From: a virus
Taxonomy: Duplodnaviria > Heunggongvirae > Uroviricota > Caudoviricetes
DNA length: 64,000 nt
IMG/VR virus record: IMGVR_UViG_2703718777_000015
Direction: 5' to 3' (one strand)
A program made the translations under genes and the position numbers. The notes below the pieces were generated by a model that saw only the letters and a program-made list of their open reading frames with translations, made no database searches and was not told the DNA's origin. Shown in pieces: positions 3,752 through 50,964 of this stretch (positions are counted from its first letter, which is position 1; each line of letters opens with the position of its first letter).

Positions 3752-3768
3752 CAATACATTAGAGCAAT
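3752..3768 (-). promoter_or_regulatory. C1 repressor operator (15/17 match to ATTGCTCTAATAAATTT)
   Basis: Minus strand reads ATTGCTCTAATGTATTG upstream of the lpa-like gene. Confidence 0.6.
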
Positions 3769-3769
3769 T

Positions 3770-4813
3770 TTATCTAACACTCGACGAGTGACTTGTGATA
3801 GCGCCGACTCCAAGCGCGTAATCAAAGAACAATCGTTGATGCATCGCCAGCCTACCGTGCGTCTTCTCCCAATTATCGCGGTCACGCTCAATATCACGCT
3901 GGCATGACTGGCACAGAGGAATTGCGTAAATGTCATGCGCGCATAATCGACTATGACGAACGATATAAGGCGTAATGTGAGCGCCAGCTCCCGCCGCTCC
4001 ACACCCACAGCATGGACGGGAAGCAACAAAGTCCATGTACTCAGGTAATTTTAGCGATTGCAGTTTTGGTATTTTGAAATGCGCCATGCCAGGGTCGGAG
4101 TCAACATCCACAGAGCATACTTTTGCACGCATCGGCGCGGCGCGTTCTTCCATCATCTGAACATATGCTGTAGCGCGATCGTCATACGGGCGAATATCCG
4201 CCTCTTTCAGAGGTCCGCTATCCTGCGTTGCGGCTTTCATCTTATTTATTGATATACGGCAAACTTCTTCCGGCATCAGGTGCATCATGTTGCGCATGAA
4301 AGCCCACCAGCACAGTTCCTGAATACTTAAATCATGGCCATCTGAAAGCCCCATTTCCTGACGGGCGACATCCAGTATCCAGTTAACGCGATTATTATGC
4401 AGCGTTTCTTTCAGCTCATTAAAACCACGCATCCGGTAATGGTTATCGTGATGCCAGCACAACAACACCGCGCTATTGTCTCGTTCAGCGTGGACAATAT
4501 GGTTGTCACACCAACTACGATCTGCGGCCTGGCATTGACCCTCTTTCCTACGCAACCACGCCACCAGCGCGTCAATTCCACCAATACGGCGAAACAGTTC
4601 ATCGCTGTTAAAAAACGGCTGCAACGCCTCATTTGTTGCCATAGTTTGCTCGGAAACAACGAGGCCGTCGTCCATGTGCTCGATTAACTCACGCGGCACC
4701 GGCTCCATAATAAATTTACGGCCAGCCTCCACCAGCTTTCTGACTTCCTGATCCACTTTGAATGTGGCGACGCCAAGCTCTTTTTGTACAAAGGGAGTAA
4801 TTACGGCTTTCAC
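3770..4813 (-). CDS. hypothetical protein with Cys/His-rich C-terminal metal-binding region
   Basis: 347-aa ORF; C-terminal CCGCG...H...C.H...C..C cluster. Confidence 0.6.
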
Positions 4814-4840
4814 ATCACACCTTTCATCACTGATTGGGCT

Positions 4841-5020
4841 TTATCTGCTGCCCGGCATTCTCTGTTTAAGCACAACCATTTCCTGACGGCATAACACAGC
4901 AATAGCGGTCCTGGCACCAATTTGCTTACCAACCAGGTATTGCTTTACCTCGCGGCGACTCACGCCATCAAGAAGCATCTTTAACGCTCTACGGGACAAT
5001 TTGTTGTATTTACGTGCCAT
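4841..5020 (-). CDS. small basic hypothetical protein (59 aa)
   Basis: GGAG 9 nt upstream of ATG; immediately downstream of doc. Confidence 0.45.
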   Translation of the reverse strand: MARKYNKLSRRALKMLLDGVSRREVKQYLVGKQIGARTAIAVLCRQEMVVLKQRMPGSR

Positions 5021-5024
5021 TGAT

Positions 5025-5405
5025 CTACTCCGCAGAACCATACAATCTACGTAACGTGGCGGCGACAGTAGATACAGATATCTCTCCGGTCGCAGCCCCT
5101 ACGGTAAGGTCTACCAGTTCAGGGGAGTCAAATACCTGCACCCCGTTACGGCGTAGAAATAACAGCGCACTGTTTAGCGCGGTACGCTTATTGGCATCAT
5201 TGAATATATGCCCTCTCGCTGTAGCCACCAGGTAGGTGGCGGAGACTTCGAAAAGGTCGGTGATCTCTTCGTAGGCAACTCTGGCCTGAACTCTCCCGAT
5301 AATGGCCTCTGCCCTACCCGGATCTGACATTCCCGGCAGGCCGCCGTAGCGGTTTATATTCGCATCATGAAGCGCAATAAGTTCTTCCGGTGATATATGC
5401 CTCAT
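5025..5405 (-). CDS. doc: Doc toxin (death on curing, Fic-fold kinase)
   Basis: 126 aa; [11 protein letters not shown] Fic/Doc motif; coupled to phd. Confidence 0.9.
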
Positions 5406-5626
5406 TATCGGTTAACCAGTTCCTTGTTGGTGGAGTCCAGGGTGTCAAACAGGGATGCAAATTCAGCATCCAGCGCCGCTTTTTTGTAGGCTTCGAAAGT
5501 AGCCTTGCTGACAATTACTGCTGGCTCACGGCCTCTGCGGGTGATTTCAACCTCTTCCCCGGCTTCAACATTGTTGAGCACTTCAGAAAGGTTGCCGCGC
5601 GCGGTACGGAAGTTAATGGATCGCAT
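5405..5626 (-). CDS. phd: Phd antitoxin (prevent host death)
   Basis: 73 aa, [18 protein letters not shown]...; stop overlaps doc start. Confidence 0.9.
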
Positions 5627-5632
5627 AAACAC

Positions 5633-5698
5633 CTCGTGTACTCGTTATGTGTACACAATTATAAACTTCACAGGCATAAAGCACCAGCACTTTGCAGC
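5633..5698 (-). promoter_or_regulatory. phd-doc promoter/operator region with repeated GTGTAC palindromic half-sites
   Basis: tgtgtactcgttatgtgtacac just upstream of phd. Confidence 0.45.
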
Positions 5699-6088
5699 TT
5701 AAATCACCGGACAATCATCAAATTCCCCACTTCGGGCATCATTGATGACATGAGTGATCACACCAAAAACAGCATTACTGCCCGTGTATCCATCGTCATC
5801 TACTGGTAACGCCTCTTTCTTCCCGGTGCTTAAATCCTCCAGGTGCTGGCGCGGATACTTCCTGTATCTCTTTATGCGATATTCACCCTCCATAGCGCAC
5901 ACAAGCAGAGAACCATCAACCGGAGTAAGCGAGGAATCAACCACCAGCAAAGCACCCTGCAATATTCCCTCACGGTGATGGCTATCAGCTGCCCGCATGA
6001 AGTAGGTTGCTGATGGATGCCTGATTAGTTGCTGATCAAGAGAAATTCGGCTTTCAACATAATCCGCCGCAGGAGAAGGGAAGCCCAT
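5699..6088 (-). CDS. humD: UmuD'-like S24 peptidase-fold protein (P1 HumD-like)
   Basis: 129 aa; LexA/UmuD C-terminal-domain-like; directly upstream of phd-doc as in P1. Confidence 0.8.
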   Translation of the reverse strand: MGFPSPAADYVESRISLDQQLIRHPSATYFMRAADSHHREGILQGALLVVDSSLTPVDGSLLVCAMEGEYRIKRYRKYPRQHLEDLSTGKKEALPVDDDGYTGSNAVFGVITHVINDARSGEFDDCPVI

Positions 6089-6109
6089 AGCGTTTTCACC
6101 TCAATAATA

Positions 6110-6125
6110 CTGTTCATTTATACAG
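6110..6125. promoter_or_regulatory. LexA (SOS) box CTG-N10-CAG between divergent humD and the lxr-like gene
   Basis: CTGTTCATTTATACAG read directly. Confidence 0.65.
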
Positions 6126-6262
6126 TATACATTAAAGAGACACCTTTGGTGCAAACGCGTTACGTACATCAACAACCGCTGATGATTTTGTGCGCTTTGC
6201 TACTATTCATCACCAACGGATCAGCGTAACCTCGTTGCCAATCAGTTAATAAGGAATTAGCT

Positions 6263-6715
6263 ATGCCTAATGGCATTCCTCTCGATCCTGTATTGCCCAA
6301 AAATTTTGACTGCACTCCTAACGAGAAACGCTCTAAAGCTCAGCTGGACGCCTGGTGGGACCATCCCTATGGGGTTACAGAACATGACGGGAAAATTGTT
6401 GTTTATTGTCTGAATGGTGGCGCGTGGGACCGTCCATCCGTGCTTGGTTTGGCAAATAACTATGATGAAGCCTGTGAACTTGCCGAAAGACAGCAGGCTA
6501 GATGGGTGAAAACACGGTCACAGCCGACATTCATGTTTTCAAAAGAACCGCCATTTATACTGGCGAGGATGCCGCAGCGACCGGATCATCAACAAGAAAT
6601 TGTTGCTGAATTTTCCTCAAGGGATGAGATGAATCTCTTCTCATTAAAGCAGGAAGAAAGGGAGCGCGTCGAAGTGTCTCCAACTCTCGACCACAACCGG
6701 ATGAACCTGGCCTAA
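6263..6715 (+). CDS. hypothetical protein (position of P1 lxr, LexA-regulated)
   Basis: 150-aa ORF divergent from humD across the LexA box. Confidence 0.55.
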   Translation: MPNGIPLDPVLPKNFDCTPNEKRSKAQLDAWWDHPYGVTEHDGKIVVYCLNGGAWDRPSVLGLANNYDEACELAERQQARWVKTRSQPTFMFSKEPPFILARMPQRPDHQQEIVAEFSSRDEMNLFSLKQEERERVEVSPTLDHNRMNLA

Positions 6716-8118: not shown

Positions 8119-9047
8119 ACTTCACCCTCGCTTGTATCGCCAGCATCCACCAACGGCAATAAAGCCATGGCCATCTTATGAACCAACAGAGCATCGATAA
8201 TGCCAAGCGTATGCCCCGGCTTAATGTTTAATGCCGCCTCAAGGTGACACCTTTCTAGGTCACTTTTCTCGGCTTGTTTATGATGATCTGGCGTAATAAC
8301 GTCGCCCAAAACACGGCTAATTCTTTCTCGTAATTGCTGGGTGCCAGCACACTTGACCGCTGTATCGTGGAGGCGGTTAACCAGTTCGCGATAAACATGC
8401 GGCTTAATTCGGATACGTTCACCGGGGACGCCCTTTCCTTTCGCTGGCACCGAACTATCCGGAATGTCCGGATAGTTGCCAGCCTCGTAAGCTACCCGCA
8501 GCCAGTGCATGAATGTTTCAGTGGACACACAACCACAGTCCACATCGATTTTCCCGCGTTGCTGTTCCAGCCATTGCCCAAAATCCAACCTGTAAGTCTT
8601 ACTTTCAAGTTCATCACCATTGAACTCGACTTTCTGCGACGCTATGAGAGCTGATTCGTATTGTTCGCGAGTGACAACTGACTGGTATTCATCGCTATCA
8701 AGGTCACCAATTGGAAGCTCAATCTCACAACAAAAATTGCGCCCAAAGAAAGTGTCTTTTTTGTGGTCTGAGCCAAAAGCAAAAGTCGCGCATGGTGCCA
8801 TTAAATTGACACTGGGTAGGTAACAATAACTCATTCCATCAGGCCACCCGCCGCACTTAGGCAGCTCCTTCACTAACAAGTCGATAAGCTTCATTTTTTT
8901 ATCATCTTTGCAAGCCGCCAAAGCCATTTGGGCAAGTGCCAATACTTCATCGGCCGTATATCCAGCACCGTGACCATACATTTCGATACGGGAAATAGTC
9001 TCTGATATACGCTCTTCAGTGATTCTGGTCATTTCTTTTTGCGCCAT
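8115..9047 (-). CDS. hypothetical protein (310 aa), no recognised domain
   Basis: Long ORF, translationally coupled to neighbours. Confidence 0.65.
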   Translation of the reverse strand: MAQKEMTRITEERISETISRIEMYGHGAGYTADEVLALAQMALAACKDDKKMKLIDLLVKELPKCGGWPDGMSYCYLPSVNLMAPCATFAFGSDHKKDTFFGRNFCCEIELPIGDLDSDEYQSVVTREQYESALIASQKVEFNGDELESKTYRLDFGQWLEQQRGKIDVDCGCVSTETFMHWLRVAYEAGNYPDIPDSSVPAKGKGVPGERIRIKPHVYRELVNRLHDTAVKCAGTQQLRERISRVLGDVITPDHHKQAEKSDLERCHLEAALNIKPGHTLGIIDALLVHKMAMALLPLVDAGDTSEGEV

Positions 9048-9403
9048 TTCTTTTCACATTCCTTAGTCCATTTTTCAATGTTCATTTTGGCAATATCAGT
9101 CATTCCATCACCTAAGAAATACTTTCTCCGGTATGTCTTGCACTTAAACCACACTACAACAGCCACCAGCCAGAAAATAAAAGGCCATACAGCAATACCA
9201 ACGACAGCCGCGATAAAGCCCAATATCCATAAATGAAGCTCTCCAACTTCTGTTTCCGGCAATATTCTTAAAGAATTAAACAGCAGGCTGAACGAATGGT
9301 CGTATGCATTGGCAGTATAAGACATGCAATCCATATAATTAAAGTCATAGCCTGCGGCTGCCGCCCATAATGGGCGGTCAAGAAAATGTTTTAGTGTCAT
9401 CAT
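9029..9403 (-). CDS. hypothetical membrane protein (124 aa) with lysine-rich C-terminus
   Basis: TM segment LWILGFIAAVVGIAVWPFIFWLVAVVVWF. Confidence 0.55.
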   Translation of the reverse strand: MMTLKHFLDRPLWAAAAGYDFNYMDCMSYTANAYDHSFSLLFNSLRILPETEVGELHLWILGFIAAVVGIAVWPFIFWLVAVVVWFKCKTYRRKYFLGDGMTDIAKMNIEKWTKECEKKWRKKK

Positions 9404-9409
9404 ATTAAT

Positions 9410-9799
9410 TTAAGGTTCAGACCAGTTATCTTCAATAGCAATGCTTAATCTTTGTAGCCATTCTGCTAATTTCAGCATTGCTTCTCTTTCGCTTAAACCA
9501 CGAGGAAAATCATCAAGCGATATTGTTGGCTTGAAGCCCCCGTAATTATCCATTTCAACGGTCAGATTTTGCTCCAGTACGGTATTCCTTACGCGGCTAT
9601 TGTGGCGAAGCAAATATACTGAACGTGATTTATTGGTTTTGTGGTCGAGCTGATATTCGGTAAGTATCATCTGGCTTTTGCCATGACTATTACCTCTCCA
9701 CATACTTACCTCACTTAATAAAACAACTCCATGCGTAGTTGATGATTTTTTCCCACGTAATATAAATCTGCACTCCGGCAGTAAAACCAAAGCCAACAA
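9410..9799 (-). CDS. hypothetical protein
   Basis: ORF only; start uncertain. Confidence 0.35.
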   Translation of the reverse strand: MLALVLLPECRFILRGKKSSTTHGVVLLSEVSMWRGNSHGKSQMILTEYQLDHKTNKSRSVYLLRHNSRVRNTVLEQNLTVEMDNYGGFKPTISLDDFPRGLSEREAMLKLAEWLQRLSIAIEDNWSEP

Positions 9800-10196
9800 T
9801 TGCTGAAAAAATCAAAACATTTACTTTTGACATTATAAATTTTCTCTCGGTGTCGTAGGTGATAGCACCATAATTGATAATTTAGTGAGTTAGCAGTTCC
9901 ATTTTTTGGATGATTTCCGCATGAGCATCATCGTTGTCAACACTTAACTCGTTTAATGCCTCTCGCACTACATCAACTTCTTCTGGTTGGAAGAAGTCAT
10001 CTCGGTTGTCACCAAATAGAACCGAAACAAGCCTTCCACCAGCAACATCAAGATTGGCGCTAACAGGTGGCTCTTTACCATCCTCAAATCGACTACAAAA
10101 GTTATTTTTCCCATCGTTACCACCAGCGACAAATTGAATACAAACCCAGTGCTGCCGCCATCACAATTCCTACCGTTGCGAATGCTTCAGGCCAGC

Positions 10197-11468
10197 TCAT
10201 TGACCTGCCTCCTGGGGAGGTTCTGGTAGCAGCATCCAGAACAAGGCGTTCCCTAACCACGATAAAGTGCCGTCGCTCAACTCCACGTATTCCCCTTGCA
10301 CCTGTCCTGCCATATACTCACTGTGCTTTGAATAAATTAAAATCCAATCATCTTGAGCGGGCATTCGCTCACTACAGCTTATCCAACCATCCGGAGTTAC
10401 CGGAGAATTGCCATTTACCAAGTCAGCTCGAACATATAGCGTGTCATCATGGTGCTGATTGTGGCTGCACCACGTTAATTCGCTTAACTCGCCATCTTCT
10501 GGCCATACTCCAGCTGTTTGCAGCCAGATATGGGCTGGCGCATCCTGGCAAGGTGTATTAACTGGAAACTTGTAAGTTTGGCTTACAGGTTGGATACCCT
10601 GAAGCATGGCAGCGTGGCAGGCATCCTCTACGCCCTTAACTGCATCTGCGCAGTAGTTATAGCGATTGCATTCCACTAACTTCTGCTTGAGATTTTCAAT
10701 TGCTTGCGCGACATCAGCCTGTATTTCCGGAACTGGCGGAACGGCTGTCTGCTGCTCTCGAACGTCATTAGTCGCTATCGGTTCTGCTGCCAACTGACTG
10801 GCATATTTGTTAATGGTAACGATAAGCTCTTGCTCAGCCTCATCCAGACAATCACCGATACCTCGCCTGTCACCGTCAAAATCATCGAAATCGGCACGAA
10901 CCCTGGCAACCTTCATAATTGCTGACAGCACCTCACCTGGAATTACCGGAGAGTTGCCAGCCAGTCTACGCAAAACAGCCTTAACAGCCTCAATACGGTC
11001 ATCATCAACTTTTTCTACAATATTGGAATTTAAATACTTCGAAGCCTTGCTATGCCAATCGCTGGTTTTAGGGTCTTGTCCATCCATCAAACGCCAAGCT
11101 TCAGCGATTAACTCATAGCCAGTAACAGTGGCTTCCTGCGCATCACCAATCAGTTGTGTGATCTCTCTTTCAAGCATGCTTAGAGCGTTAGGCATTGGTT
11201 TTTCTTCAGGTACTACTGGCACTGGAGGGGCGGCATAAACAGGAATAACGTCCGGTTGCTCTTTATTGCTTTCATCCGTTAAAGCCCAGAATAATTTCCC
11301 GGCCGGATGTTTGAAAATATAAGCAACTGGTTCTGCTTCCAGTGATGCCAGCGCGATTTTGTATACTTCCAGATCCATTTGTGCAGTTACTAAATCAGGA
11401 TAACGATCCATAACCGTTATATTGCGCTTAATTATCTCTATTAATTGTTCTTTAGTAAAAGTGGTCAT
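10197..11468 (-). CDS. hypothetical phage protein with DUF551-like C-terminal domain
   Basis: 423 aa; C-terminal WISCSERMPAQDDWILIY region. Confidence 0.6.
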   Translation of the reverse strand: MTTFTKEQLIEIIKRNITVMDRYPDLVTAQMDLEVYKIALASLEAEPVAYIFKHPAGKLFWALTDESNKEQPDVIPVYAAPPVPVVPEEKPMPNALSMLEREITQLIGDAQEATVTGYELIAEAWRLMDGQDPKTSDWHSKASKYLNSNIVEKVDDDRIEAVKAVLRRLAGNSPVIPGEVLSAIMKVARVRADFDDFDGDRRGIGDCLDEAEQELIVTINKYASQLAAEPIATNDVREQQTAVPPVPEIQADVAQAIENLKQKLVECNRYNYCADAVKGVEDACHAAMLQGIQPVSQTYKFPVNTPCQDAPAHIWLQTAGVWPEDGELSELTWCSHNQHHDDTLYVRADLVNGNSPVTPDGWISCSERMPAQDDWILIYSKHSEYMAGQVQGEYVELSDGTLSWLGNALFWMLLPEPPQEAGQ

Positions 11469-11478
11469 TCGTTATGCC

Positions 11479-11676
11479 TCAATACACAAAATCTGTTTTA
11501 AATTCATGGTTACATTCTGGGCAGCATGTTTCGTAATCTTTTATTTCTTCACATGCCTGTTTTGCTCCAGAAAATTCCCAGAAATCAGCATCGCAAAGCA
11601 GATCGAAATTGTGGCCGCATTTTGGGCATTCAGTATCAAGTGATAAACTCCAGTAAGCAGGTGTGTTTTTGTCCAT
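11479..11676 (-). CDS. small zinc-ribbon protein
   Basis: CPKCGH...CCPECNH pairs of Cys. Confidence 0.5.
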   Translation of the reverse strand: MDKNTPAYWSLSLDTECPKCGHNFDLLCDADFWEFSGAKQACEEIKDYETCCPECNHEFKTDFVY

Positions 11677-11677
11677 A

Positions 11678-12172
11678 TCACTCTCCTTTGATGCGAATGC
11701 CTGCGGCGCGTGGCACATTAACTTCCACGATGCGCACTGTTGGTTTGTACATCTCAATCGCTGTCAGCCAGTCAGCTCCTGTCATGCGCTTTTCCGCATC
11801 GCCATTAGTCCACTGAACCGGTACACCAATAGCCTTCATCGCGATTTCTATTTCCCCGGCAATGGCGCTTTTTCCGCAACCAGTAAAACCAGAAACAACG
11901 ACAAGAACTTCACCTTTGGCTGGTTTTATTTCCCGATCTTCCAGTTCTGCAATGCGCTTTTTGTCTGCTTCCCGTTCATCAAGTAGTGCCAGCACGGTTT
12001 CTGGTCCGGCCAGAAATTTGAAGGCGTTGAGCGCATCAATATCCACACCGTAATCTTTAAGTTCCTGTTCACTTAACAAATCATCATCAACTGGCAACAT
12101 TAACAGGCGTTCCATTGCTGGAGTTGCACGTTCTGCCGCCTCACGCAGTGCCTGGTAATTAATTTCGCTCAC
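11678..12172 (-). CDS. ead/Ea22-like family protein
   Basis: N-terminal INYQALREAAERATP signature. Confidence 0.65.
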   Translation of the reverse strand: MSEINYQALREAAERATPAMERLLMLPVDDDLLSEQELKDYGVDIDALNAFKFLAGPETVLALLDEREADKKRIAELEDREIKPAKGEVLVVVSGFTGCGKSAIAGEIEIAMKAIGVPVQWTNGDAEKRMTGADWLTAIEMYKPTVRIVEVNVPRAAGIRIKGE

Positions 12173-12858
12173 TGGTTGCCTCCTTTGCGAAGCTCAGCGG
12201 CGAAGGCTACTGCGTGATCATGATGTTCAAGTGTGTATGCACACTCCGCAAACATCTCCACGCCCTGCGCCCGTACTTCAGCCAGGCATTTGCGAAACTC
12301 GGAAACGTACTGTTCGACGCTCATTCCCCAGCTAAGTGGACATTCATTGAATGTTTCGCCTTCGTGCTCTTCATCAGGTAGCTCTTTGGTAAAGAACTCA
12401 CGCTCAATGGCGTGGAGTGTGTCAGCAAAACGACGTAAGTTACTCAAACCTACCGTAATGGAGAATTCAGGAGCATCACATCCGACGCCCATCTGCTGAT
12501 AAACGGCGGTTTTGAAGGCCTTAAGCCCCGCATTCTCCGCCACCAGCGCCGCGAGATTAGTCTCAAGCTCTGCAATTCGGCACATAGCATCAATATTTGT
12601 GTCCTCCAGGCGCTTAATTTCACCAAGCAGCTCCAGTGCAACCTTTGGGTTGAACGCGGCAACATAACGAGCGTTGTTCTCTGCATTTTTCTGTCCATCA
12701 AAGCCGGTCCATTTGATAACGTCTTCACATCGTTCATCACCGGGCGTGTGCACCGCATAAGTACCAGTATCCGTCGAAATAAATGCGACCCATTCGTCTG
12801 GTGTTGCCTTTTCTGCCGCCTCACGCAGTACCTGATAGTCAATTGTCATTCTCGCCAT
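12169..12858 (-). CDS. ead/Ea22-like family protein (paralog)
   Basis: N-terminal DYQVLREAAEKATPDEW signature; start region also similar to 10197..11468. Confidence 0.65.
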   Translation of the reverse strand: MARMTIDYQVLREAAEKATPDEWVAFISTDTGTYAVHTPGDERCEDVIKWTGFDGQKNAENNARYVAAFNPKVALELLGEIKRLEDTNIDAMCRIAELETNLAALVAENAGLKAFKTAVYQQMGVGCDAPEFSITVGLSNLRRFADTLHAIEREFFTKELPDEEHEGETFNECPLSWGMSVEQYVSEFRKCLAEVRAQGVEMFAECAYTLEHHDHAVAFAAELRKGGNQ

Positions 12859-13490
12859 CCTTCACAGTTGTAATCACTACAGCCTTCAAAATCATATGGG
12901 CTGTACTGCCAGGTTATTTTTCCGCAATGCGGACAATTCCAACGCACCTTCCCGCTTCGCGACTTCTTTCTTCTGTTCTGCTCTTTCAACCAGTCAGGCA
13001 TGACCAAACCTGCGCCCTGAACCATTGTTCTGCGGTTAAAGTTATTGATATTGAACGTCCGGCGCTTTGCTGCATCAGCAATGGAAAATGGCAACCAAAC
13101 TATTCCTGGTTCGTTTTTGTTGGCGACGCTAAAGATGGTCGCTTTACTGAAGTCATCTGTTGGCAATCCACCGTGTTGAAGCCAGTAAACATCGTTGCCG
13201 TTCCAGCTACCTTTTTTGTAGGCCACATACGCAGTGCAATCTGACTCAATCGGGCTTTCTGTAGGGATGTACTGGCAATCAACGTGCCACACAGCCATTG
13301 CATCCACACTATCGGCACAAACAGGCTGATCGATATCTCGCCCACAATTCCAGGCTTTTTGGGCTTCTTCCAGCGTGTAAACATGAGCGCGATCGATATC
13401 AGAACTGTAACCATTGCCGTTATGGCAATGGAATGAGGCGTTATTACCCACAGTTTCACGCAAGCACATCATGTAAAAACGGTTACTCAC
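12846..13490 (-). CDS. hypothetical protein with C-terminal zinc ribbon
   Basis: 214 aa; CPHCG...C..YNC. Confidence 0.55.
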   Translation of the reverse strand: MSNRFYMMCLRETVGNNASFHCHNGNGYSSDIDRAHVYTLEEAQKAWNCGRDIDQPVCADSVDAMAVWHVDCQYIPTESPIESDCTAYVAYKKGSWNGNDVYWLQHGGLPTDDFSKATIFSVANKNEPGIVWLPFSIADAAKRRTFNINNFNRRTMVQGAGLVMPDWLKEQNRRKKSRSGKVRWNCPHCGKITWQYSPYDFEGCSDYNCEGWRE

Positions 13491-13698
13491 TGGATGCCTC
13501 CCAGCAAATTTGTCTTATATAAGAACTGTTAACGCGCTTTACTTTCCCGTCGAACTCCAGTTTCTTTAGACGACGCAAAACGTATGCCGTTTTGAGTGTG
13601 CGATATTTATCCCTAAGCCAGTTGGTCACGACGTAAGTCATACAGCGCCCGTGTTCTTCCAACACCCGAACTATTTCTTCGTCGGTTGGCTTGCTCAT
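13483..13698 (-). CDS. small hypothetical protein (71 aa)
   Basis: ORF with coupled overlaps. Confidence 0.45.
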   Translation of the reverse strand: MSKPTDEEIVRVLEEHGRCMTYVVTNWLRDKYRTLKTAYVLRRLKKLEFDGKVKRVNSSYIRQICWEASSE

Positions 13699-13916
13699 TT
13701 TGTCGCTCCTTCAGCTTTCTCTACTTTCGCTGCCATGATTTCCAGCTTTTGTGCTGCCGATGCCGCTAACCTGTGAAATTCTTCATCTGTTTCAACTGGA
13801 ATTGGTACAAACCTGACACCAATTTGAGCAAGGCTATGCGCCATTTCGAGACTTGCTCTTAACTCTGCTGGGGATGCTTTATTCAGGCCGACTTCCTCAC
13901 AAATAACAGATTGCAT
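13695..13916 (-). CDS. small hypothetical protein (73 aa)
   Basis: ORF with coupled overlaps. Confidence 0.45.
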   Translation of the reverse strand: MQSVICEEVGLNKASPAELRASLEMAHSLAQIGVRFVPIPVETDEEFHRLAASAAQKLEIMAAKVEKAEGATK

Positions 13917-13925
13917 ACGCTCGCC

Positions 13926-14651
13926 CTACTGAATACGCTCAAACTCGATTACCCACACCCAGGGATTAGCGTTCCAGCTTTCTTCACCATAGATGGATTC
14001 CCACAGGCGCTGGAACGCAACCTTGGCCATTGCGAAATCCCCCTTGGGAGTAAGGAATGTTCCCGGGTGATCAGGAAGCAAACTTCCAGCAGGCGGAACG
14101 CCCTCATCCCTTGCATCGCATTCGCTGATATTGTTCAACCGCTCAACGCGCACGTTGGTAATTTCCAACAGGATGCGTGATGCCCATCGCGGCATGTGAA
14201 TTGATGGACGCCACCCACCATCAAACTTTTCATTCACAGTGTGAGGTTTCCAGTCGGCATCATCGGGTATCGACCATAAACCGTAATCACCAGGCTTTTG
14301 CTCACAACTGGCCCGATAAATCCTTGCTGCGTTCTTCTCATCGCCACGACAAAGGTTGTCGTTCCAGTCCACACTGCAACCATCTTCATTGCCTAATATC
14401 GCCCATGTTTCACGAACCCAAATTCGATCGCCGACGATACCAAAGGGGCAATTGAAAACACTGCTTACACCATCAGCCCCGTACCACTGAAAACCTGCAC
14501 CAATTTCCCTAACCATCACTGGTGCTTCTGGACCAACTTCCGCAGGCTGATTTTTCATTATCCGCCGCGTCTGCGTTTTCCTTCCTTCGAGGATGGCTCG
14601 GACCATCTCATCGTTGAAAATCATGCCGCGCTCTTTCACTTCGCCTTTCAT
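13926..14651 (-). CDS. ASCH (PUA-like) domain protein
   Basis: N-terminal FNDEMVRAILEGRKTQTRR matches ASCH GxKxxxxR signature. Confidence 0.5.
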   Translation of the reverse strand: MKGEVKERGMIFNDEMVRAILEGRKTQTRRIMKNQPAEVGPEAPVMVREIGAGFQWYGADGVSSVFNCPFGIVGDRIWVRETWAILGNEDGCSVDWNDNLCRGDEKNAARIYRASCEQKPGDYGLWSIPDDADWKPHTVNEKFDGGWRPSIHMPRWASRILLEITNVRVERLNNISECDARDEGVPPAGSLLPDHPGTFLTPKGDFAMAKVAFQRLWESIYGEESWNANPWVWVIEFERIQ

Positions 14652-14829: not shown

Positions 14830-14846
14830 AGATTTATTAGAGCAAT
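14830..14846 (-). promoter_or_regulatory. C1 repressor operator (16/17)
   Basis: Minus strand ATTGCTCTAATAAATCT. Confidence 0.65.
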
Positions 14847-15425: not shown

Positions 15426-16688
15426 TCAGCGAACGTAAATAGTGCCGCCGTTCTCTTTTTCCCATGCATCGCTACGTGCATAGCAAACATCGAGAAGTCT
15501 TCTTGCCGCTGTTTCCTCTAAACCCAATTCGACAACCAACTGCTCATGACGGCGGGTAACCACATCAAACAGGGTATGCAGCCCTTTATTGGCCAGTTCA
15601 TCAATGAATTCCGGTTCGAACGGTAGCTCTGCATCTGCCAACATAACCTCTTGCGCCCACTCGACACGGCGGACCAGTTCCGGGCGGCGGCTTTCCATCT
15701 CTTTACAGATCATTTCATGGAAGAACTCTACCCAACCTTCCGGCTGGAACTCGCGGAAAATGGCCAACGGCTGGAAGTTTGGCATCAACCATTCGTTGAT
15801 ACGTATATCAATGGCATAGCCCATGTCGCAGCAGAACTGATAAGCAAAGTCCAGCTTAGAAACGATATAAGGACGCTCGTTATTGAACTCTTTAGGCGAT
15901 GAGATCCCATAAGCCAGGAGGCGCGGGAAGAATGAGATTTGCCCTAACGTCGGATGGAGTTTGCTTGCAGGGAAACGGCGCTCAGTAATGCCATACATTT
16001 CCTTCTTGAGCGTCGCAAATTTGGCGTTTTCATTAACCAGCTCGGTAACCTCTGCTTTTTTATTAGCAAATGCCACGCGCGCCTCGCTTGCATCTTTAAT
16101 AGCCTTTTTGAGCTGTTGGTTAAGGTCGACAATCTGCTTACGCAGTTCCTGTCGCTCGCTTTTGGCTTTGTTATAGCGTTTCTCAAGGTTAAAAGGATCA
16201 AGTTTCATGATCTCTTTATATTGAGATTTTAGAGTTGAAATCTGTGAGTTCCGCAGCACAACCATCGCGGTCATTTCATTGAGTTTTGTTTCCAGCTCAA
16301 TGCTTATACGTTCGGCATTATCAGCACGCTGGTTGGCGTCATGCGTCGCATCTTCGATCGCGTCCTGTTGCTGGCGTTTCAAATGTTCAATTTCCAGCTG
16401 AAGCTCTTCAATTTCTTTACCCTTCAGACCGAGATCCAACTGCATATTTTCAGCTGCATCTACCAGGGAGTTATGGCTATCAGCTTCTGCGTTATAAACA
16501 TCAATAAGCTGTGCGTGAAGCATCTCCGCTGACTGAACCGCATTATCAAAAAAACGCGCTGTGAGGTCATCACAACTAACGCGGCGTTGCGCGGCTCGGA
16601 TGTTCTGGATAATGGCCGGGATACCGGCATTCAGGACATCAGGGATAGAAACATTTTCGATTGATTGGTTTTGTGCTGAAGTGCTCAT
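15426..16688 (-). CDS. hypothetical coiled-coil protein (420 aa)
   Basis: Central heptad-rich region; no recognised catalytic motif. Confidence 0.6.
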   Translation of the reverse strand: MSTSAQNQSIENVSIPDVLNAGIPAIIQNIRAAQRRVSCDDLTARFFDNAVQSAEMLHAQLIDVYNAEADSHNSLVDAAENMQLDLGLKGKEIEELQLEIEHLKRQQQDAIEDATHDANQRADNAERISIELETKLNEMTAMVVLRNSQISTLKSQYKEIMKLDPFNLEKRYNKAKSERQELRKQIVDLNQQLKKAIKDASEARVAFANKKAEVTELVNENAKFATLKKEMYGITERRFPASKLHPTLGQISFFPRLLAYGISSPKEFNNERPYIVSKLDFAYQFCCDMGYAIDIRINEWLMPNFQPLAIFREFQPEGWVEFFHEMICKEMESRRPELVRRVEWAQEVMLADAELPFEPEFIDELANKGLHTLFDVVTRRHEQLVVELGLEETAARRLLDVCYARSDAWEKENGGTIYVR

Positions 16689-16689
16689 T

Positions 16690-16908
16690 TCAAAGTTCCG
16701 TATTAGCTTGTGCTTCGGTCATTTTTCCTAAGTATGAAGGTGGAAGGACTACGCAATTTGTATCCAGTCCCTCACCTATGGCAGCCTGTAAAATTCTGGC
16801 TAAGGTGAGTCTCTTGTTGCGATACCTGGTGATGACATGCCTGATACCGCCGGTCGGCGTAACAAAGGCGATCAGCCAGTAGTGATATTTCCGTCGGAAT
16901 GGCCACAT
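16690..16908 (-). CDS. small hypothetical protein (72 aa)
   Basis: ORF 62 bp downstream of an operator; coupled to the 420-aa gene. Confidence 0.45.
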   Translation of the reverse strand: MWPFRRKYHYWLIAFVTPTGGIRHVITRYRNKRLTLARILQAAIGEGLDTNCVVLPPSYLGKMTEAQANTEL

Positions 16909-16916: not shown

Positions 16917-16933
16917 TTATAGATTGCTCTAAT
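16917..16933 (+). promoter_or_regulatory. C1 operator-like site (14/17), plus orientation
   Basis: ATTGCTCTAATAAAAAA; may be part of the terminator A/T tract. Confidence 0.35.
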
Positions 16934-16958
16934 AAAAAACGTGATGAGTGTACATCAC
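16928..16958. terminator. bidirectional intrinsic terminator hairpin
   Basis: aaaacgtgatg-agtgtac-atcacgtttt flanked by A/T runs. Confidence 0.55.
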
Positions 16959-16965
16959 GTTTTAA

Positions 16966-16982
16966 AAATATGGAATTATTAG
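16966..16982 (-). promoter_or_regulatory. C1 operator-like site (14/17)
   Basis: Minus strand ATTGCTCTAATAATTCC. Confidence 0.5.
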
Positions 16983-16989
16983 AGCAATA

Positions 16990-19548: not shown

Positions 19549-19711
19549 TCATTTCAGCGATTACAGGGTCCACTACAGCATCTGTTTCCTGTTCATTACG
19601 CGGCATGATCGATGCCAGCGATTCATAATTAGCCTTGGATGACACGATTATTCTCCCGATGTTAATGTGCGCTATATCAAATGGCGCATATGTACTAATT
19701 AATTTATTATT

Positions 19712-33825: not shown

Positions 33826-33842
33826 ATATTTATTAGAGCAAT
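33826..33842 (-). promoter_or_regulatory. C1 repressor operator (16/17)
   Basis: Minus strand ATTGCTCTAATAAATAT. Confidence 0.65.
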
Positions 33843-36037: not shown

Positions 36038-36189
36038 TACGGCTTCCTTCCAACCGGCTTTATTGGCCGGTTTATTCAACTTATCCACAGCATAGATCCA
36101 ATAAACAGATCCTAAAGAGAACCTAGGAAGATCCAAAGAAGATCCCGGATCGCTGTAAGCCGCGCCATTTCTGGCCTGAAATGGGATCA

Positions 36190-36316
36190 ACATTGACTAT
36201 ACGCGATTTTATGTTGACTGTGCACGATTTATTGTTGACTGCACGCGATTTATTGTTGACTATACGCGACAGAAACATTGACTGTACGCGATTTTAGAGC
36301 CTGACTATTCACAGTT
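36190..36316. repeat. replication origin iteron array: 5-6 direct copies of TTGACT(A/G)(T/C)(A/G)C(A/G)CGAT at about 21-22 bp spacing
   Basis: Copies at 36193, 36215, 36235, 36256, 36279 (plus degenerate at 36301), immediately upstream of repA. Confidence 0.8.
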
Positions 36317-36371
36317 GTTGATAACTGCAATCCAGATGACGCCAGGCCGCGCCACATATGGAGAAACCACG

Positions 36372-37256
36372 ATGCCGGAAGAAAATAAAGGCTTCCTTAG
36401 CGTTGAAGAAGTTGCAGGAAATACAGGAGAAATCCACAGCCTGAAACCCAATAACAATAGCACTATACAACCCATCGCTTTGTTGCGCTTAGGTGTGTTT
36501 GTGCCAACCTTAAAATCTACCAATGTGGCACTACGTCGCGGATCGTCAGTTACTACAAACACAACGAACGCAACCGAAGAACTATCAAGCCTCAAAATTG
36601 TTGAGCAGGAAGGCTATGAGGGAATTGAAATACATGGTCCACGCCTGGATATGGATACTGATTTTAAGGTGTGGGTGGGCATAACCTCCGCGTTGTTTGA
36701 CTACGCACCTGATGATGACGGCATAATCACCCTGCCATTCTCCGAGTTTGCCGATCGATGCGGCTATCCACGTAAGCGCCTTTCAAAGGCGTTCCGTAAA
36801 AGTATTGATGACTCTCTGACACGCATTCAGCAGACAGTTGTCAAATTCCGCTTCCCGGCGGCAAAAGGTCATCTCAATAACATTAACGTCAACTTGTTGG
36901 CATATAGCAGCCTGAATACCGAGCTTGATGTTATCGAGATCCAGCCGCAGAAACAGCTATCTGAACTTTACTATGTTGACTATAAGCGAATCCTGAAGCT
37001 GAAGATGCTGGATAAGCTCGGGCGCAAAGAGACGGCCAAGGTGCTGTATACATTCTTTGAGGCTCTACCCGCCAACCCGGCACCTGTCAGCATTGAGCGC
37101 CTTAGAGCAAGGCTTAATCTCAAATCATCCGTTAGCGTGCAAAATAGCGTTATCAGAAAAGCTATGAAAGATTTGGAAGCTATTGAATATCTTAAATTTT
37201 CAGAGATAAAAAACGGCAGGAAAATCGGCTTCCAGATCCATAAGCGCAATCCATAA
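36372..37256 (+). CDS. repA: iteron-binding replication initiator RepA
   Basis: 294 aa between two iteron arrays; GGAG 8 nt upstream. Confidence 0.75.
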   Translation: MPEENKGFLSVEEVAGNTGEIHSLKPNNNSTIQPIALLRLGVFVPTLKSTNVALRRGSSVTTNTTNATEELSSLKIVEQEGYEGIEIHGPRLDMDTDFKVWVGITSALFDYAPDDDGIITLPFSEFADRCGYPRKRLSKAFRKSIDDSLTRIQQTVVKFRFPAAKGHLNNINVNLLAYSSLNTELDVIEIQPQKQLSELYYVDYKRILKLKMLDKLGRKETAKVLYTFFEALPANPAPVSIERLRARLNLKSSVSVQNSVIRKAMKDLEAIEYLKFSEIKNGRKIGFQIHKRNP

Positions 37257-37257
37257 T

Positions 37258-37530
37258 ATTGACTATATGCGATAGCGAGAAGTTGACTATAGGCGACATT
37301 CGTTGACGCTGGTGGATTTTTGCTGGCGTCAATATTCTGCAAGTCGCTATTGAGATGGCTTTTAGGGTCATTTCATCGCGTATAGTCAACGTTTCTCCCG
37401 ACAATATCTTACATAGTCGATTTTTGGTGGAGTTAAATCGACTACAGTCAACTTTTGACTGTAGTCACATCGCGCATAGTCAACTATTCACATTAACTTT
37501 CGCGCATAGTCAACATTTGCGCGGTTCTCA
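37258..37530. repeat. copy-control iteron array (incA-like): about 9 copies of the same iteron in both orientations
   Basis: ttgactatatgcgat, ttgactataggcgac, cgcgtatagtcaa, tcgactacagtcaa, ttgactgtagtcaca, cgcgcatagtcaa (x2) and others. Confidence 0.8.
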
Positions 37531-37548
37531 TCAAGCAGTGGTATTGAT

Positions 37549-38358
37549 ATGCAAGAAGAGAAACAACACTACCTCTACGTTCTGGTGCCGGAGAACGGAG
37601 ATACTTTTAAAATCGGCATTTCATGTGGTCCATTGGCACGGTTTAAAGGGCTACAAGTGAGTCCCGATTTTGCGCTTTCACGGGTCTATCGTGGTACGCG
37701 TTTGGCAATGGTTAATCTTGAGCGGGCTTTACACGCAACCTTTTTCCCCTGGAATGCGCCGTGGGAGAAAAGCGCCGGTGGCGGGCATACTGAATGGTTT
37801 ACACGAGAGTGTCTTGATAAGGTTTTGGCTCATATCGAATACCTAAATGATATGTGGGGAGGGATTCTTGAGCGGATTAAGTCGAATGATTTACTTCAGC
37901 GTCCAGTAGATGCTGCTCGCTCTTTCGAAAAAGAACTGGATGTTACTTCTATCGTGACTTTCAAAGATGACGCAGGAATGAGGGATGTGGCTTATGTCTC
38001 CATATCTGGCTATGAACCTGACGCGATCCGCGCTCAATGTGAATTGCTGAAAGCGATGTTTACGCTTCGGACTAAATATCCCTGGGAGACAGGGCGGGTG
38101 TGCTTCCCTATGGAAGAGTTAACCGCCATCATTGATTCCCAGCTTTACCACGATAATCCAGAGAAGTTTTTTAGCCTTTTAGCTGGTAATGGGCTTAACT
38201 GTGTGTCCGGACTGGGGCGAAGTAGAATCCAACATGCCTCGCTCTTCGGTCCCTTCTTTTACGATCGAAACGGGTGCTTTGAGGCTGAACTTCCGGCGCT
38301 AACGCGTGCTATAGATACTATCGATTTCGAACGATTATTCGCAGCTCTTAACAAATAA
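37549..38358 (+). CDS. GIY-YIG-like / T5orf172-type domain protein with unknown C-terminal domain (269 aa)
   Basis: N-terminal HYLYVLVPENGDTFKIGIS...R...EWF pattern; own terminator; inserted between iterons and parA. Confidence 0.5.
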   Translation: MQEEKQHYLYVLVPENGDTFKIGISCGPLARFKGLQVSPDFALSRVYRGTRLAMVNLERALHATFFPWNAPWEKSAGGGHTEWFTRECLDKVLAHIEYLNDMWGGILERIKSNDLLQRPVDAARSFEKELDVTSIVTFKDDAGMRDVAYVSISGYEPDAIRAQCELLKAMFTLRTKYPWETGRVCFPMEELTAIIDSQLYHDNPEKFFSLLAGNGLNCVSGLGRSRIQHASLFGPFFYDRNGCFEAELPALTRAIDTIDFERLFAALNK

Positions 38359-38365
38359 CACTGAT

Positions 38366-38387
38366 GCCCCTGAACGGGGCTTTTTTG
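38366..38387 (+). terminator. intrinsic terminator after the T5orf172-like gene
   Basis: gcccc-tgaac-ggggc followed by TTTTTT. Confidence 0.7.
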
Positions 38388-38526
38388 TGCCCTCCTTGCA
38401 ACTCTCTATCGTGCAAAATGAACCAAACATGCAGAGAATGCTATGTACAAGCATCTACGCATACATTATTATTTTATGCAGCATTTTTAATTAAATTCAA
38501 AAATACAGCATAAAGGATGACTTTCG

Positions 38527-46457: not shown

Positions 46458-47054
46458 ATGGCTGTGATTCCAATGTCGTACTCCCCGGGTACTGTCGCTC
46501 GTCGATTTTCGATCCTGGACGGCGTTACCATCCAGGGTGTGCTTTACCAGGTTATATGGGATTCCAAAACCCCATTTGCAGCTGTAATAGAGGCTGCGCC
46601 TTCTGTTATCGATGGTGATATGCGGCATAAGGTTGTCGCTACTCTTGAACTTCAACGTCGCCCGCAGCTTGAAGGCGTACTTGTAAGGAAGTTCTGGGAG
46701 GATAGCGATGTTGCCCAGATTGAAGGTATCGTGGTTGATGGAATCGTCCGGGATGTCGGTTTAGCCACTTTTGTTTACGAAACCGTAGCCTCAAAAGCTG
46801 GTGTTGTTTTGCTCAGTGATAATGAGCAATACGAAGGTGGAAAAGCTCTTTGGCAACACATCGCCCGTCGCTCATCCGAGCTAAAAGTGTTTATCCTCGA
46901 CACCGATGCCGCTCAGTATTACCCGTTTGACGGCGAACGTGTTTGCTATGACGGGGTAAGTATTCCTGAATCCGAGATATGGAGTGAACACCCAGATCGA
47001 AGTAAGCATGGGGTTGTTCTGGTTGCTGAATCCATAACTGGAAAGGCGGCATAG
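46458..47054 (+). CDS. hypothetical protein (198 aa)
   Basis: AAGGGGG upstream of ATG. Confidence 0.5.
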   Translation: MAVIPMSYSPGTVARRFSILDGVTIQGVLYQVIWDSKTPFAAVIEAAPSVIDGDMRHKVVATLELQRRPQLEGVLVRKFWEDSDVAQIEGIVVDGIVRDVGLATFVYETVASKAGVVLLSDNEQYEGGKALWQHIARRSSELKVFILDTDAAQYYPFDGERVCYDGVSIPESEIWSEHPDRSKHGVVLVAESITGKAA

Positions 47055-47236
47055 CAGTAAAAAATTCCTTGCTCCTTGACAGAGGAGAGGATTAATCTAA
47101 GTACGCTAAGCATAGGTATGGCCCCGGTTAATGTTAAGCGTTGTGCGGGACGCATAATGTTTACTGGGGCTTTCTTCTATCTGCTTTTCGGGTAATACCT
47201 GAAGCTGATAGCCCCAAGCACACCGCAGCGGGTGTA

Positions 47237-47482: not shown

Positions 47483-47532
47483 CTCCGACCTCAAACTGAA
47501 AACGCCAGGTGACTCCAGATTAGAGCAATCTA

Positions 47533-48407: not shown

Positions 48408-49208
48408 TTAGCGCGTTGCCGCGACAGGTACCAGCACACCAGCATCAAGCAATCGCTTCATCAGCCACTGCTGACCTTTGCCGGTTATACGAGTCGTGAA
48501 AGAAATCCTGCTTCCATTGCTTGTATCGATCACGGTTTCTTTAAGGGTGAAATACCCACGGGATATGTATTCTTGTTTGGGGACGTTCCTGCGTTCACCG
48601 GTTGCGATCAGAATTCCGTTATCACGCAACCAGGTGAAGAGATAGTTTTGGCCCAGGCCGAGCACTTTGGCATAGTTGCCGATTAGAACTCCGCTGGCGG
48701 TAGCAACGCGTTCGGCGAATTCGACTTTAGGTGCATCCATAAGCATTTTTTGCTCCAGCCGTTGCTTTTGCTCTGCCAGGTCGGCAGCCAAACGGAGAGC
48801 TTCAGGGAGACTCTGCGGAATAGCAGGTTGTAATCTTCCGGCTCGATAGTCGATAAATGTCTGGTTTACCTTCAGCCGAAACGCGGGAGAAATCCAGCCT
48901 GCGTACTCCACAGCGAGCAATTCATGGGCAAAAGTGCCGCCGCCACGGCCTTCGAAAGAAACTATGCAATTCTGCATAGTTTCTTTTTCAAGCTCTTCGA
49001 TGAGCTGTTTGGCTGACAGCGTTCTTAGCCATTGAGCTGGCGCTTTATGGGCACCGAGTCCGCTCGCTCTGTGTAGAGCATTAAGGTTGTAACGGCCAGC
49101 GCGGTCGGTCGTAATTTCAACACCACAAATAACAGGCAGAGTGGTTGAAGGATCGACATTTTGATGAAGGTTTGATATATTCATATCCGCATTGAATGTT
49201 TGTTGCAT
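48408..49208 (-). CDS. kilA: KilA (KilA-N domain with C-terminal antirepressor/KilAC domain)
   Basis: 266 aa; C-terminal domain shared with neighbouring antirepressor (LPEALRLAA.LAEQK...GKGQQWL). Confidence 0.75.
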   Translation of the reverse strand: MQQTFNADMNISNLHQNVDPSTTLPVICGVEITTDRAGRYNLNALHRASGLGAHKAPAQWLRTLSAKQLIEELEKETMQNCIVSFEGRGGGTFAHELLAVEYAGWISPAFRLKVNQTFIDYRAGRLQPAIPQSLPEALRLAADLAEQKQRLEQKMLMDAPKVEFAERVATASGVLIGNYAKVLGLGQNYLFTWLRDNGILIATGERRNVPKQEYISRGYFTLKETVIDTSNGSRISFTTRITGKGQQWLMKRLLDAGVLVPVAATR

Positions 49209-49277
49209 TTTTTCTCCAAATTTGCATCAACCTTCAATCACCAGCTCGAAATGGTGATTCTTTGCACTTAGAAAACG

Positions 49278-49294
49278 AAATTTATTAGAGCAAA
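49278..49294 (-). promoter_or_regulatory. C1 repressor operator (16/17) controlling kilA-repL
   Basis: Minus strand TTTGCTCTAATAAATTT about 75 bp upstream of kilA. Confidence 0.7.
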
Positions 49295-49371
49295 TTTTTC
49301 TGGCCCGATCCAGATCGGGTTGGTCGATCTGCTCAGAAACCTGCCAGTTTGCTGGCAGGTTTTTTCTTTTG

Positions 49372-50415
49372 TTAACCTATTGCTACTGGTTTTAACAAAC
49401 CAGCATCAAGTAGCTTGCGAGTTAACCACTGCTGGCCTTTACCCGTTAATTGGGGCGTCAGCCGTATCTGGTAGCCATTTTCATCATCCAGCACCACTTC
49501 TTTCACCGTGAAATACCCGGCGTTAATGTACTGCTGGCGCGGTACGTTTTTGCGCGCACCAAAAGCCATGAGAATGCCGTTCTGGCGCAACCATGAGAAA
49601 AGGGCGTTTTGCTTAAGTCCAACGACCTTTGCAAAGTTCCCGATCAGGATTCCATTAGCCACTGATACCCGGTCGGCAAAATCGACTTTAGGGGCTGCGG
49701 CCACCAGCTGTTGTTCCAGCTGCATTTTCTGTTCTGCCAACTCGGCAGCCAGGCGTAGAGCTTCTGGTAATGTTTGGGGGATCGATGGGGCAGGGGAGTT
49801 TGCCTGCTGCAATTCTTCCAGTTTGTCGATCAGCGAACGGCGGACCGCTTTCGATTCGCGAGCAGCAACGCGCAGGGCTTGTTTGTAGGTCATGGTTATG
49901 ACCTCAAAAGAGCGCCCAGCCCTTGTGCCATGGGATTTTACGAAAGTTTCGTAAAATTCCCCATCAAGTTCATCCTTAATTCTATTGAGAAAATCGTTAT
50001 TACGGATCTCATTTTCCCCACATAGCTTGCGCGCCTCATTAACCATCTTTAACAGCGTCTGGCTGTCGATTGTGTCTCCAGTGTTGGAGATAACATTCAC
50101 AGCTGGTGATGGCGTAGCTGAAGCAACAGATTCTGGTTTTTTAACATTCAAATTATTACTGGTCATTCTATGTGCCTCCTTTCTCATTTCTGCTGCCACC
50201 GTTGCGTAACGTAGACGTCCTTGTTCAATCAAATAATCCCTGATCTCGGCTATCAGTAGCTTGTTGATCACAGCCTTATCTGTTCGGGTATAAAAACGTC
50301 TGGTTATCATGAAATAGTTGGCAATTGTGCCGGGGATCTCCCGTGTCGGCATACAGATTGTATGCAAGGCGATCGCTTCGGCTATTTCATTACGGGTGAC
50401 GAGAGGTGTTTTCAT
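49372..50415 (-). CDS. antirepressor (Ant-like, C-terminal KilAC/Bro-C domain)
   Basis: 347 aa; C-terminal domain paralogous to KilA C-terminus; preceded by icd-like ORF and c4-like RNA. Confidence 0.7.
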   Translation of the reverse strand: MKTPLVTRNEIAEAIALHTICMPTREIPGTIANYFMITRRFYTRTDKAVINKLLIAEIRDYLIEQGRLRYATVAAEMRKEAHRMTSNNLNVKKPESVASATPSPAVNVISNTGDTIDSQTLLKMVNEARKLCGENEIRNNDFLNRIKDELDGEFYETFVKSHGTRAGRSFEVITMTYKQALRVAARESKAVRRSLIDKLEELQQANSPAPSIPQTLPEALRLAAELAEQKMQLEQQLVAAAPKVDFADRVSVANGILIGNFAKVVGLKQNALFSWLRQNGILMAFGARKNVPRQQYINAGYFTVKEVVLDDENGYQIRLTPQLTGKGQQWLTRKLLDAGLLKPVAIG

Positions 50416-50633
50416 AACCCCCCCTGAACGTCGGCAGAGAAGGGGAGGTTCCAGTAACTAAGTGAATTGCGCGAGTTAGTAGAAAAACGGGCAGTAAAAA
50501 TGCAGGGACCATCAGGCAATTGAGAGCGTGCTTCGTCTTCAGTTGCTGCGATAACGAAGTGATAGTGGTGTTTTTTACAGGAATAGAAACGCCAGATGAA
50601 TTCTGGGCGTGCGCAAGGATTGGCATTAACCAT
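50412..50633 (-). CDS. icd: Icd-like small protein overlapping the antirepressor start
   Basis: 73 aa; ATGA overlap with ant; RBS embedded in antisense target a2. Confidence 0.55.
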   Translation of the reverse strand: MVNANPCARPEFIWRFYSCKKHHYHFVIAATEDEARSQLPDGPCIFTARFSTNSRNSLSYWNLPFSADVQGGL

Positions 50634-50689
50634 AGTTACGGCCTCACAATCAGGTTTAACAACCTGCTACCCGCTGTCAAACAGGTGGC

Positions 50690-50768
50690 AGGACGTGACA
50701 GGGTTGACAGACTGGCGATTGTGAAACCAGCAGGCCGAAGCCTCCCCATCACGCCCCACCATAATTTG
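50690..50768 (-). ncRNA. c4: c4-type antisense repressor RNA (boundaries approximate)
   Basis: Transcript carries a' CACAATC and b' CTGTCAAC, complementary to GATTGTG / GTTTGACAG copies upstream (50829-50851) and at the icd RBS (50645-50681). Confidence 0.55.
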
Positions 50769-50947
50769 GGCGTAACGCGGTTTAACGGACACAAAAATAC
50801 CGCAATATCGGAAATCTGCGGTTGTCCGCACAATCATTCAGGCTGTCAAACCTGGTCGCAGAATTTGCTACGACGGCAGAACTATAAGCCTGAACGATTA
50901 AAAGGTCAATATGATGCGAAAAGATAGCATTCGTGACTTAAAAATAC

Positions 50948-50964
50948 AAATTTATTAGAGCATT
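50948..50964 (-). promoter_or_regulatory. C1 repressor operator (16/17) heading the c4-icd-ant immunity operon
   Basis: Minus strand AATGCTCTAATAAATTT. Confidence 0.65.

Follow-up and report, generated by a model that had tools for sequence, protein, structure and literature searches.

What recognizes a short sequence that recurs ahead of operons throughout a phage genome? The question arises for a 64,000-nucleotide stretch of DNA from a member of the Caudoviricetes (IMG/VR record IMGVR_UViG_2703718777_000015; the whole stretch is called the window here), in which an asymmetric 17-bp sequence is repeated. The repeat could be the operator of C1, the primary immunity repressor of P1-like phages, as proposed in an earlier note made from the letters of this DNA. 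Alternatively, it could be a component of late promoters, which was the initial idea of that note, or a compositional repeat with no dedicated binding protein. We compared the window with P1 and its relatives and conclude that the repeat is almost certainly the C1 operator.

The window is ~96 to 98% identical over most of its length to P1, P7, SJ46, RCS47, and other Punavirus genomes, and 850 plasmid records, mostly from Escherichia coli, match it; along most of its length, it shares 96 to 99% identity with SJ46, RCS47, P7, JL22, and E. coli plasmids numbering in the hundreds. It runs in reverse of the P1 reference, spanning P1 positions ~93671 down to 36458. No single phage record covers the whole window; between 44 and 56 kb, the best plasmid match is NZ_CP033848.1, with 100% coverage and 97.3% identity. 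Judged by these similarities, the window makes up the greater part of a plasmid prophage of the P1 type (genus Punavirus). The list of P1 operators used below consists of the protein_bind features of GenBank entry AF234172 (NC_005856), and the consensus and site count are from PMC8546580, where the published C1 operator consensus is ATTGCTCTAATAAATTT and P1 has 22 dispersed operators.

The repeat is far more frequent than expected by chance

With up to three mismatches allowed, ATTGCTCTAATAAATTT occurs 10 times in the window, against 0.40 expected from dinucleotide-preserving shuffles, and 0 of 100 shuffles reached 10 matches; the concern raised in the earlier note, that shuffled sequence might hold the motif at a similar frequency, is not borne out. 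The ten matches are the operators of Table 1 other than the degraded Oppp counterpart and the Orlf remnant. Each carries one to three mismatches (three at Olpa, the former Op94), in agreement with the 14 to 16 matching positions out of 17 originally stated.

The weight-matrix scan suggested in that note gave the same picture. A matrix trained solely on the annotated C1 operators of P1 finds 10 matches of at least 15 bits in the window, and first-order Markov random sequences yield a mean of 0.9 and a maximum of 3. The ten strong sites score 19.1 to 26.3 bits and everything else 13.8 bits or less, leaving a clear gap between them. The left 11-base core, ATTGCTCTAAT, is present in 6 exact copies and, with at most one mismatch, in 11 copies versus 1.64 expected. 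Three matches in DNA that is foreign to P1 were considered as extra operators (26475+, 13.8 bits; 46390+, 13.7 bits; 57734-, 13.6 bits); they lie within the random range (~2.5 matches of at least 12 bits), and we claim none of them.

All the sites listed in the earlier note are real, although it counted nine strong copies where there are ten, having missed the one at 30539 that overlaps, in the opposed direction, the site at 30550. Two others, placed at 16966 and 16917, are genuine sites whose starts were given 6 nt too low (16972 and 16923 are correct), and the half-site reported at 47518 proves to be the left 11 bases of the operator Orlf. To say that nine sites define the regulon was an understatement: the element continues beyond the window, the literature counts 22 operators, and a degraded site at 19689 was also unlisted.

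Annotated P1 operators have counterparts in the window

The segment of AF234172 between 36.4 and 93.7 kb holds 12 annotated monovalent operators. Mapping each of them to the window through 150-nt flanks, the comparison that had been called for, yielded a counterpart for all 12: nine identical to P1, one altered at a single base, and two degraded (Table 1). The flanks are 95 to 99.7% identical over 317 nt. The ten strong sites correspond to Op51, Op53, Op68, Op72a and b, Op82, Op86a and b, Op88, and Op94, and share with them the same consensus, places, orientation, and promoter overlap, nine out of ten being identical. Every site is therefore orthologous to a P1 protein_bind feature labeled "phage repressor C1," and the published consensus is the same string as the repeat. 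Three sites differ from P1: Obana has one substitution (T6 to C), the Op83 counterpart has acquired two more mismatches, and of Orlf (Op55) only the left 11 bases survive, the DNA downstream of it, rlfAB in P1, having been replaced. The exact core of this remnant lies at 47519-47529 (-), its right 6 bases are replaced, and P1 similarity ends at 47519. The P1 record contains five more operators around c1 and coi, whose counterparts fall beyond the window.

Table 1. Predicted C1 operators and immunity features of the window, in the order of their positions
Feature	Position	Strand	Description
c1, 3' part	1..441	+	C1 residues 138-283 plus stop; gene start beyond the window
Olpa (former Op94)	3752..3768	-	Identical to P1 89904-89920; overlaps Plpa -35 box
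OpmgT (former Op88)	14830..14846	-	Identical to P1 84293-84309; contains P2pmgT -35 box
OpmgRb (former Op86b)	16923..16939	+	Identical to P1 82201-82217; in pmgR leader
OpmgRa (former Op86a)	16972..16988	-	Identical to P1 82152-82168; contains PpmgR -35 box
Oppp (former Op83) counterpart	19689..19705	+	Degraded, TATGTACTAATTAATTT; 2 changes from P1, 5 mismatches to consensus
O26 (former Op82)	20596..20612	+	Identical to P1 78528-78544; between divergent pmgL and gene 26
Obanb (former Op72b)	30539..30555	+	Identical to P1 68678-68694; overlapping opposed half of ban operator
Obana (former Op72a)	30550..30566	-	One change from P1 (T6 to C); half of bivalent ban operator
Odmt (former Op68)	33826..33842	-	Identical to P1 65145-65161, flanks 99.7%; abuts Pdmt -35 box
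Orlf (former Op55) remnant	47513..47529	-	ATTGCTCTAATCTGGAG; 3 nt after repL stop codon
OrepL (former Op53)	49278..49294	-	Identical to P1 49810-49826; contains PkilA -10 box; predicted to control kilA-repL (lytic replication)
C4 antisense RNA gene (immI)	50681..50766	-	Rfam RF01695 68.4 bits, RF03163 55.5 bits, both above gathering scores
Oc4 (former Op51)	50948..50964	-	Identical to P1 48140-48156; overlaps P2c4 -35 box, upstream of c4-icd-ant1/2

The sites overlap conserved promoters

When the promoter annotations of P1 are aligned to the window, all -35 and -10 hexamers are kept, with the sole exception of the P1ban -35 box, which is altered by the operator's own T-to-C change. The kept hexamers overlapped by sites belong to Plpa, P1/P2pmgT, PpmgR, P1/P2ban, Pdmt, PkilA, and P2c4. 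The -35 box lies within the operator at PpmgR, P2pmgT, and P1ban and is overlapped or abutted by it at Plpa, Pdmt, and P2c4, and at PkilA it is the -10 box that lies within the operator. The asymmetric site points along the downstream operon at eight out of eight promoters.

The genes assigned to these sites in the earlier note also hold up: lpa, pmgR-pmgS, gene 26 and the tail genes, the tRNA/ban operon, uhr-hrdC(rdgC)-dmt, kilA-repL, and c4-icd-ant. Olpa sits 71 nt before the lpa start codon (3679-3681), and the -35 box, the -10 box, and the ATG are all kept relative to P1. OpmgT heads a long leftward operon that runs from ~14795 down to 7756, again with its promoter hexamers kept. The first large gene of this operon encodes a 241-amino-acid protein that had been labeled "ASCH," a name we could not support: the protein has no Pfam match up to an E value of 5, and its sole match is phrog_874. 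OpmgRa lies upstream of pmgR (16690-16908, 72 amino acids) and pmgS (15426-16688, 420 amino acids), with OpmgRb as its opposed partner 32 nt downstream, making the pmgR operator a spaced opposed pair. O26 precedes the late promoter LP26 and, on the opposite strand, shares bases with the predicted -35 box of P1pmgL, and Odmt is upstream of uhr-hrdC(rdgC)-dmt.

Two observations concern individual operators. The T6-to-C change of Obana, at window position 30561, occurs in an otherwise perfect consensus and weakens the P1ban -35 box from TTGCTC to TTGCCC. Exactly between the opposed OpmgRa and OpmgRb, in the pmgR leader and just after pmgQ, there is a hairpin (16938-16963, -) with an 11-bp stem, a folding energy of -13.4 kcal/mol, and a z-score of -5.8, followed by a U run and identical in P1; a consensus terminator scan of this interval did not flag it, though folding shows a strong hairpin.

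The repressor and its immunity partners

The element has a homolog of C1, the lack of which would have spoken against the proposal of the earlier note. The 146 C-terminal residues of C1 encoded in the window are identical to P1 C1.100 at 145 positions, and the counterpart of c1 in SJ46 is annotated as "primary repressor of lytic function." The C4 antisense RNA gene is accompanied by an a1/b1 target region at 50835-50887, as delimited by Rfam, and genes for Icd-like and KilAC antirepressor proteins are annotated in a plasmid collinear with the window. The immI module of P1 tripartite immunity is thus represented in the window, with the predicted C1-controlled promoter at Oc4, the c4 antisense RNA, icd, and ant1/ant2.

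In P1, C1 is made upon infection, binds ~22 dispersed operators, and keeps repL, lpa, and other early functions repressed; Lxc makes it bind the operators more strongly, and Coi and Ant1/2 inactivate it (PMC8546580). Inactivation of C1 raises the expression of dmt, kilA, ban, ssb, and ref (PMC4713147). By analogy with this literature, we infer binding and repression by C1 at each site of the window, together with the roles of Lxc, Coi, and Ant. In the lysogen, C1 would occupy each site. The sites overlap or abut the -35 or -10 box of a sigma-70 promoter or lie just downstream of one, and their occupancy would block transcription of lpa (the late-gene activator), kilA-repL, the tRNA/ban operon (helicase), and uhr-hrdC-dmt, as well as of pmgR-pmgS, the gene 26/pmgL region, the operon behind OpmgT, and the upstream promoter of c4-icd-ant (antirepressor). 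Once C1 was inactivated by Coi or Ant, all of these operons would fire together.

Lambda CI is likewise a prophage repressor that blocks early promoters through sites overlapping their -35 or -10 boxes. The lambda repressor binds as dimers to palindromic sites that are clustered at two operators, OR and OL. P1-type immunity differs in that an asymmetric site is scattered over many operons across the genome. A 1987 paper by Eliason and Sternberg, cited in PMC8546580, refers to "multiple asymmetric sites."

A divergent relative retains the sites

Little of the DNA of Cronobacter phage JK004 (MZ188976), a divergent P1-like phage, can be aligned with the window: of a 701-nt Odmt probe, only 257 nt found a match, with 74% identity, and the operator was not covered. 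Applied to JK004, the P1-derived matrix finds 18 sites of at least 15 bits, versus 0.4 in random sequence. They lie before the orthologs of uhr-hrdC-dmt and of ban (two sites), as an opposed pair before pmgR-pmgS, around c1/coi, and after a pap-like gene, where the site heads a long small-gene operon; the one preceding lpa scores lower, at 14.6 bits. None of these operators is annotated in the JK004 record, unlike those of P1 in AF234172. The presence of the motif at syntenic places despite the diverged DNA around it argues that selection acts on both the operator word and where it lies throughout the P1-like group.

Several considerations weigh against assigning the repeat to C1. At 97 to 98% identity to P1, conservation of the sites in close relatives says little by itself, and it is JK004 that carries weight. 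Outside the window are the N-terminal half of C1 as well as coi, lxc, and the Op99, Op2, and Op21 operators (including Op99a to Op99e). Several of the overlapped promoters (PpmgT, PpmgR, PpmgL, and PpmgN) carry only a "predicted" label in the P1 record. The scores of the Op83 counterpart (12.9 bits) and of the Op55 remnant (less than 9 bits) fall in the random range or below it. Finally, the operators described here are putative ones, predicted from sequence, and C1 binding is known from P1 itself.

Alternative explanations

The other readings of the repeat fare far worse than the C1 operator. If it were part of Lpa-dependent late promoters, its AT-rich composition and its intergenic location ahead of operons would be accounted for, as would the copy at 20596, which lies 25 nt from a late promoter. 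However, P1 late promoters use a different 9-bp -22 box, such as TAGTCATTT at window position 20637-20645 for LP26, and the annotated ones are elsewhere (LPpac, LPhot, LPsit, and LPs). Moreover, the motif sites are annotated C1 binding sites and head early operons and lpa itself. Hence, the revision already made in the earlier note, away from late promoters, was sound, since those promoters have another box and other positions; we regard the late-promoter explanation as effectively refuted and give it practically no credence. A chance or compositional repeat, for example, an AT-rich promoter-like word shared without a dedicated binding protein, is about equally improbable. Several copies do contain the -35-like hexamer TTGCTC, and selection for promoter function could by itself favor part of this word. 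This does not explain why the 17-bp word is found 10 times against 0.4 expected and the exact 11-mer 6 times, why the same word occupies syntenic places in JK004, a genome with diverged flanks, or why the cognate repressor gene is present in the window.

A narrower question is whether all of the C1 operators still work. Only the ten strong sites may be active, the Op55 remnant and the Op83 counterpart being relics that C1 no longer binds, with the genes behind them having escaped direct C1 control. The remnant keeps 11 of 17 bases, and the Op83 counterpart has lost the near-invariant C at position 5 and scores in a range where ~2.5 random matches per window reach at least 12 bits. The half-site form is also common among plasmids, as ~300 of 645 records share the arrangement of the window. 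Against this, a perfect 11-base core directly after the repL stop codon is unlikely by chance, the Op55 and Op83 of P1 itself already match the consensus least well (17.9 and 18.3 bits) but carry an operator annotation, and the corepressor Lxc raises operator affinity (PMC8546580). We find the arguments evenly balanced, and these two weakest sites may be nonfunctional here.

Cargo behind the operators

The sites, their consensus, and the dispersed regulon are already known, having been mapped in P1 decades ago and annotated in its reference genome, and novelty with respect to P1 is limited to the cargo behind some operators. As a discovery, the result matters little, since what it describes is P1's known C1 immunity regulon, found again in a plasmid prophage of a very common P1-like kind. 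The operator set can serve as a reliable annotation marker for phage-plasmids of the P1 type, a common vehicle for resistance genes in E. coli, and it predicts which variable cargo genes would stay off in the lysogen and be switched on along with the lytic cycle.

The variable segments of the window coincide with regions catalogued across 77 P1-like elements in PMC9603915 (simABC, rlfAB-pmgF, repA, tciABC, and pmgT..humD), a study whose text does not mention operators. Of the five large differences from P1, three fall within operator-headed operons. Behind OpmgT (Op88), 5.5 kb (8490-13957) are absent from P1, all at a single P1 coordinate, 85182, inside pmgT. The genes of this extra DNA are of the lambdoid accessory type (DUF1382, two Ead/Ea22, and DUF551), and SJ46 and JK004 also carry the long form of the operon, with that of P1 being 5.5 kb shorter. 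The 241- and 310-amino-acid genes that border the extra DNA are unrelated to each other; therefore, P1 pmgT looks like a fusion of the two that arose by deletion, and pmgU appears to be a C-terminal remnant of the 310-amino-acid gene. The same lack of relatedness ruled out a model in which the two genes are pmgT-like paralogs joined by homologous recombination. In the C1-controlled ban operon, the tciABC slot (28234-29061, -) holds a gene for an SPFH/Band-7 protein (275 amino acids; Pfam E = 1e-30), and the three tRNA genes are retained. Downstream of repL, at the Op55 remnant, rlfAB is replaced by an 81-amino-acid open reading frame and a convergent 210-amino-acid gene, with the families phrog_7522 and phrog_3772 (function unassigned) involved in this replacement region. 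A fourth large difference, the sim region, starts ~205 nt upstream of Oc4 (Op51).

One could imagine that C1 operator-promoter units act as fixed "sockets" for cargo exchange among P1-like phage-plasmids, with the inserts being silent in the lysogen and switched on at induction. We consider this idea doubtful and put it forward only tentatively. A related proposal, that the operators themselves are recombination junctions, drew on the loss of P1 similarity within Op55 and on alignments of several relatives that stop at the Op51 edge. It was rejected as weak: in a spread of 60 of the 645 matching plasmid records, the junctions near repL fall at five positions, with only one class at the operator.

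Further differences were observed. In the DNA replacing rlfAB, there is a match to the Rfam family "sok" (RF01794) at 47050-47223 (-), scoring 62.3 bits versus a threshold of 59; no Hok-like open reading frame was found after it, and the match abuts the convergent 210-amino-acid gene. The sim side of Oc4 (50962-53800) is unlike that of most relatives: the alignments of RCS47, SJ46, P7, and JL22 stop at ~50962, the operator edge, and that of P1 continues to 51169. The next ~2.6 kb have a low G+C content (0.36 to 0.42), and the best-matching plasmid has a "simA domain protein," hypothetical proteins, and an SH3-domain protein annotated there. Lastly, the repA/oriR region (36175-38428) does not align with P1, a divergence consistent with the alternative replicon types of P1-like phage-plasmids, IncY versus p0111 (PMC9603915).

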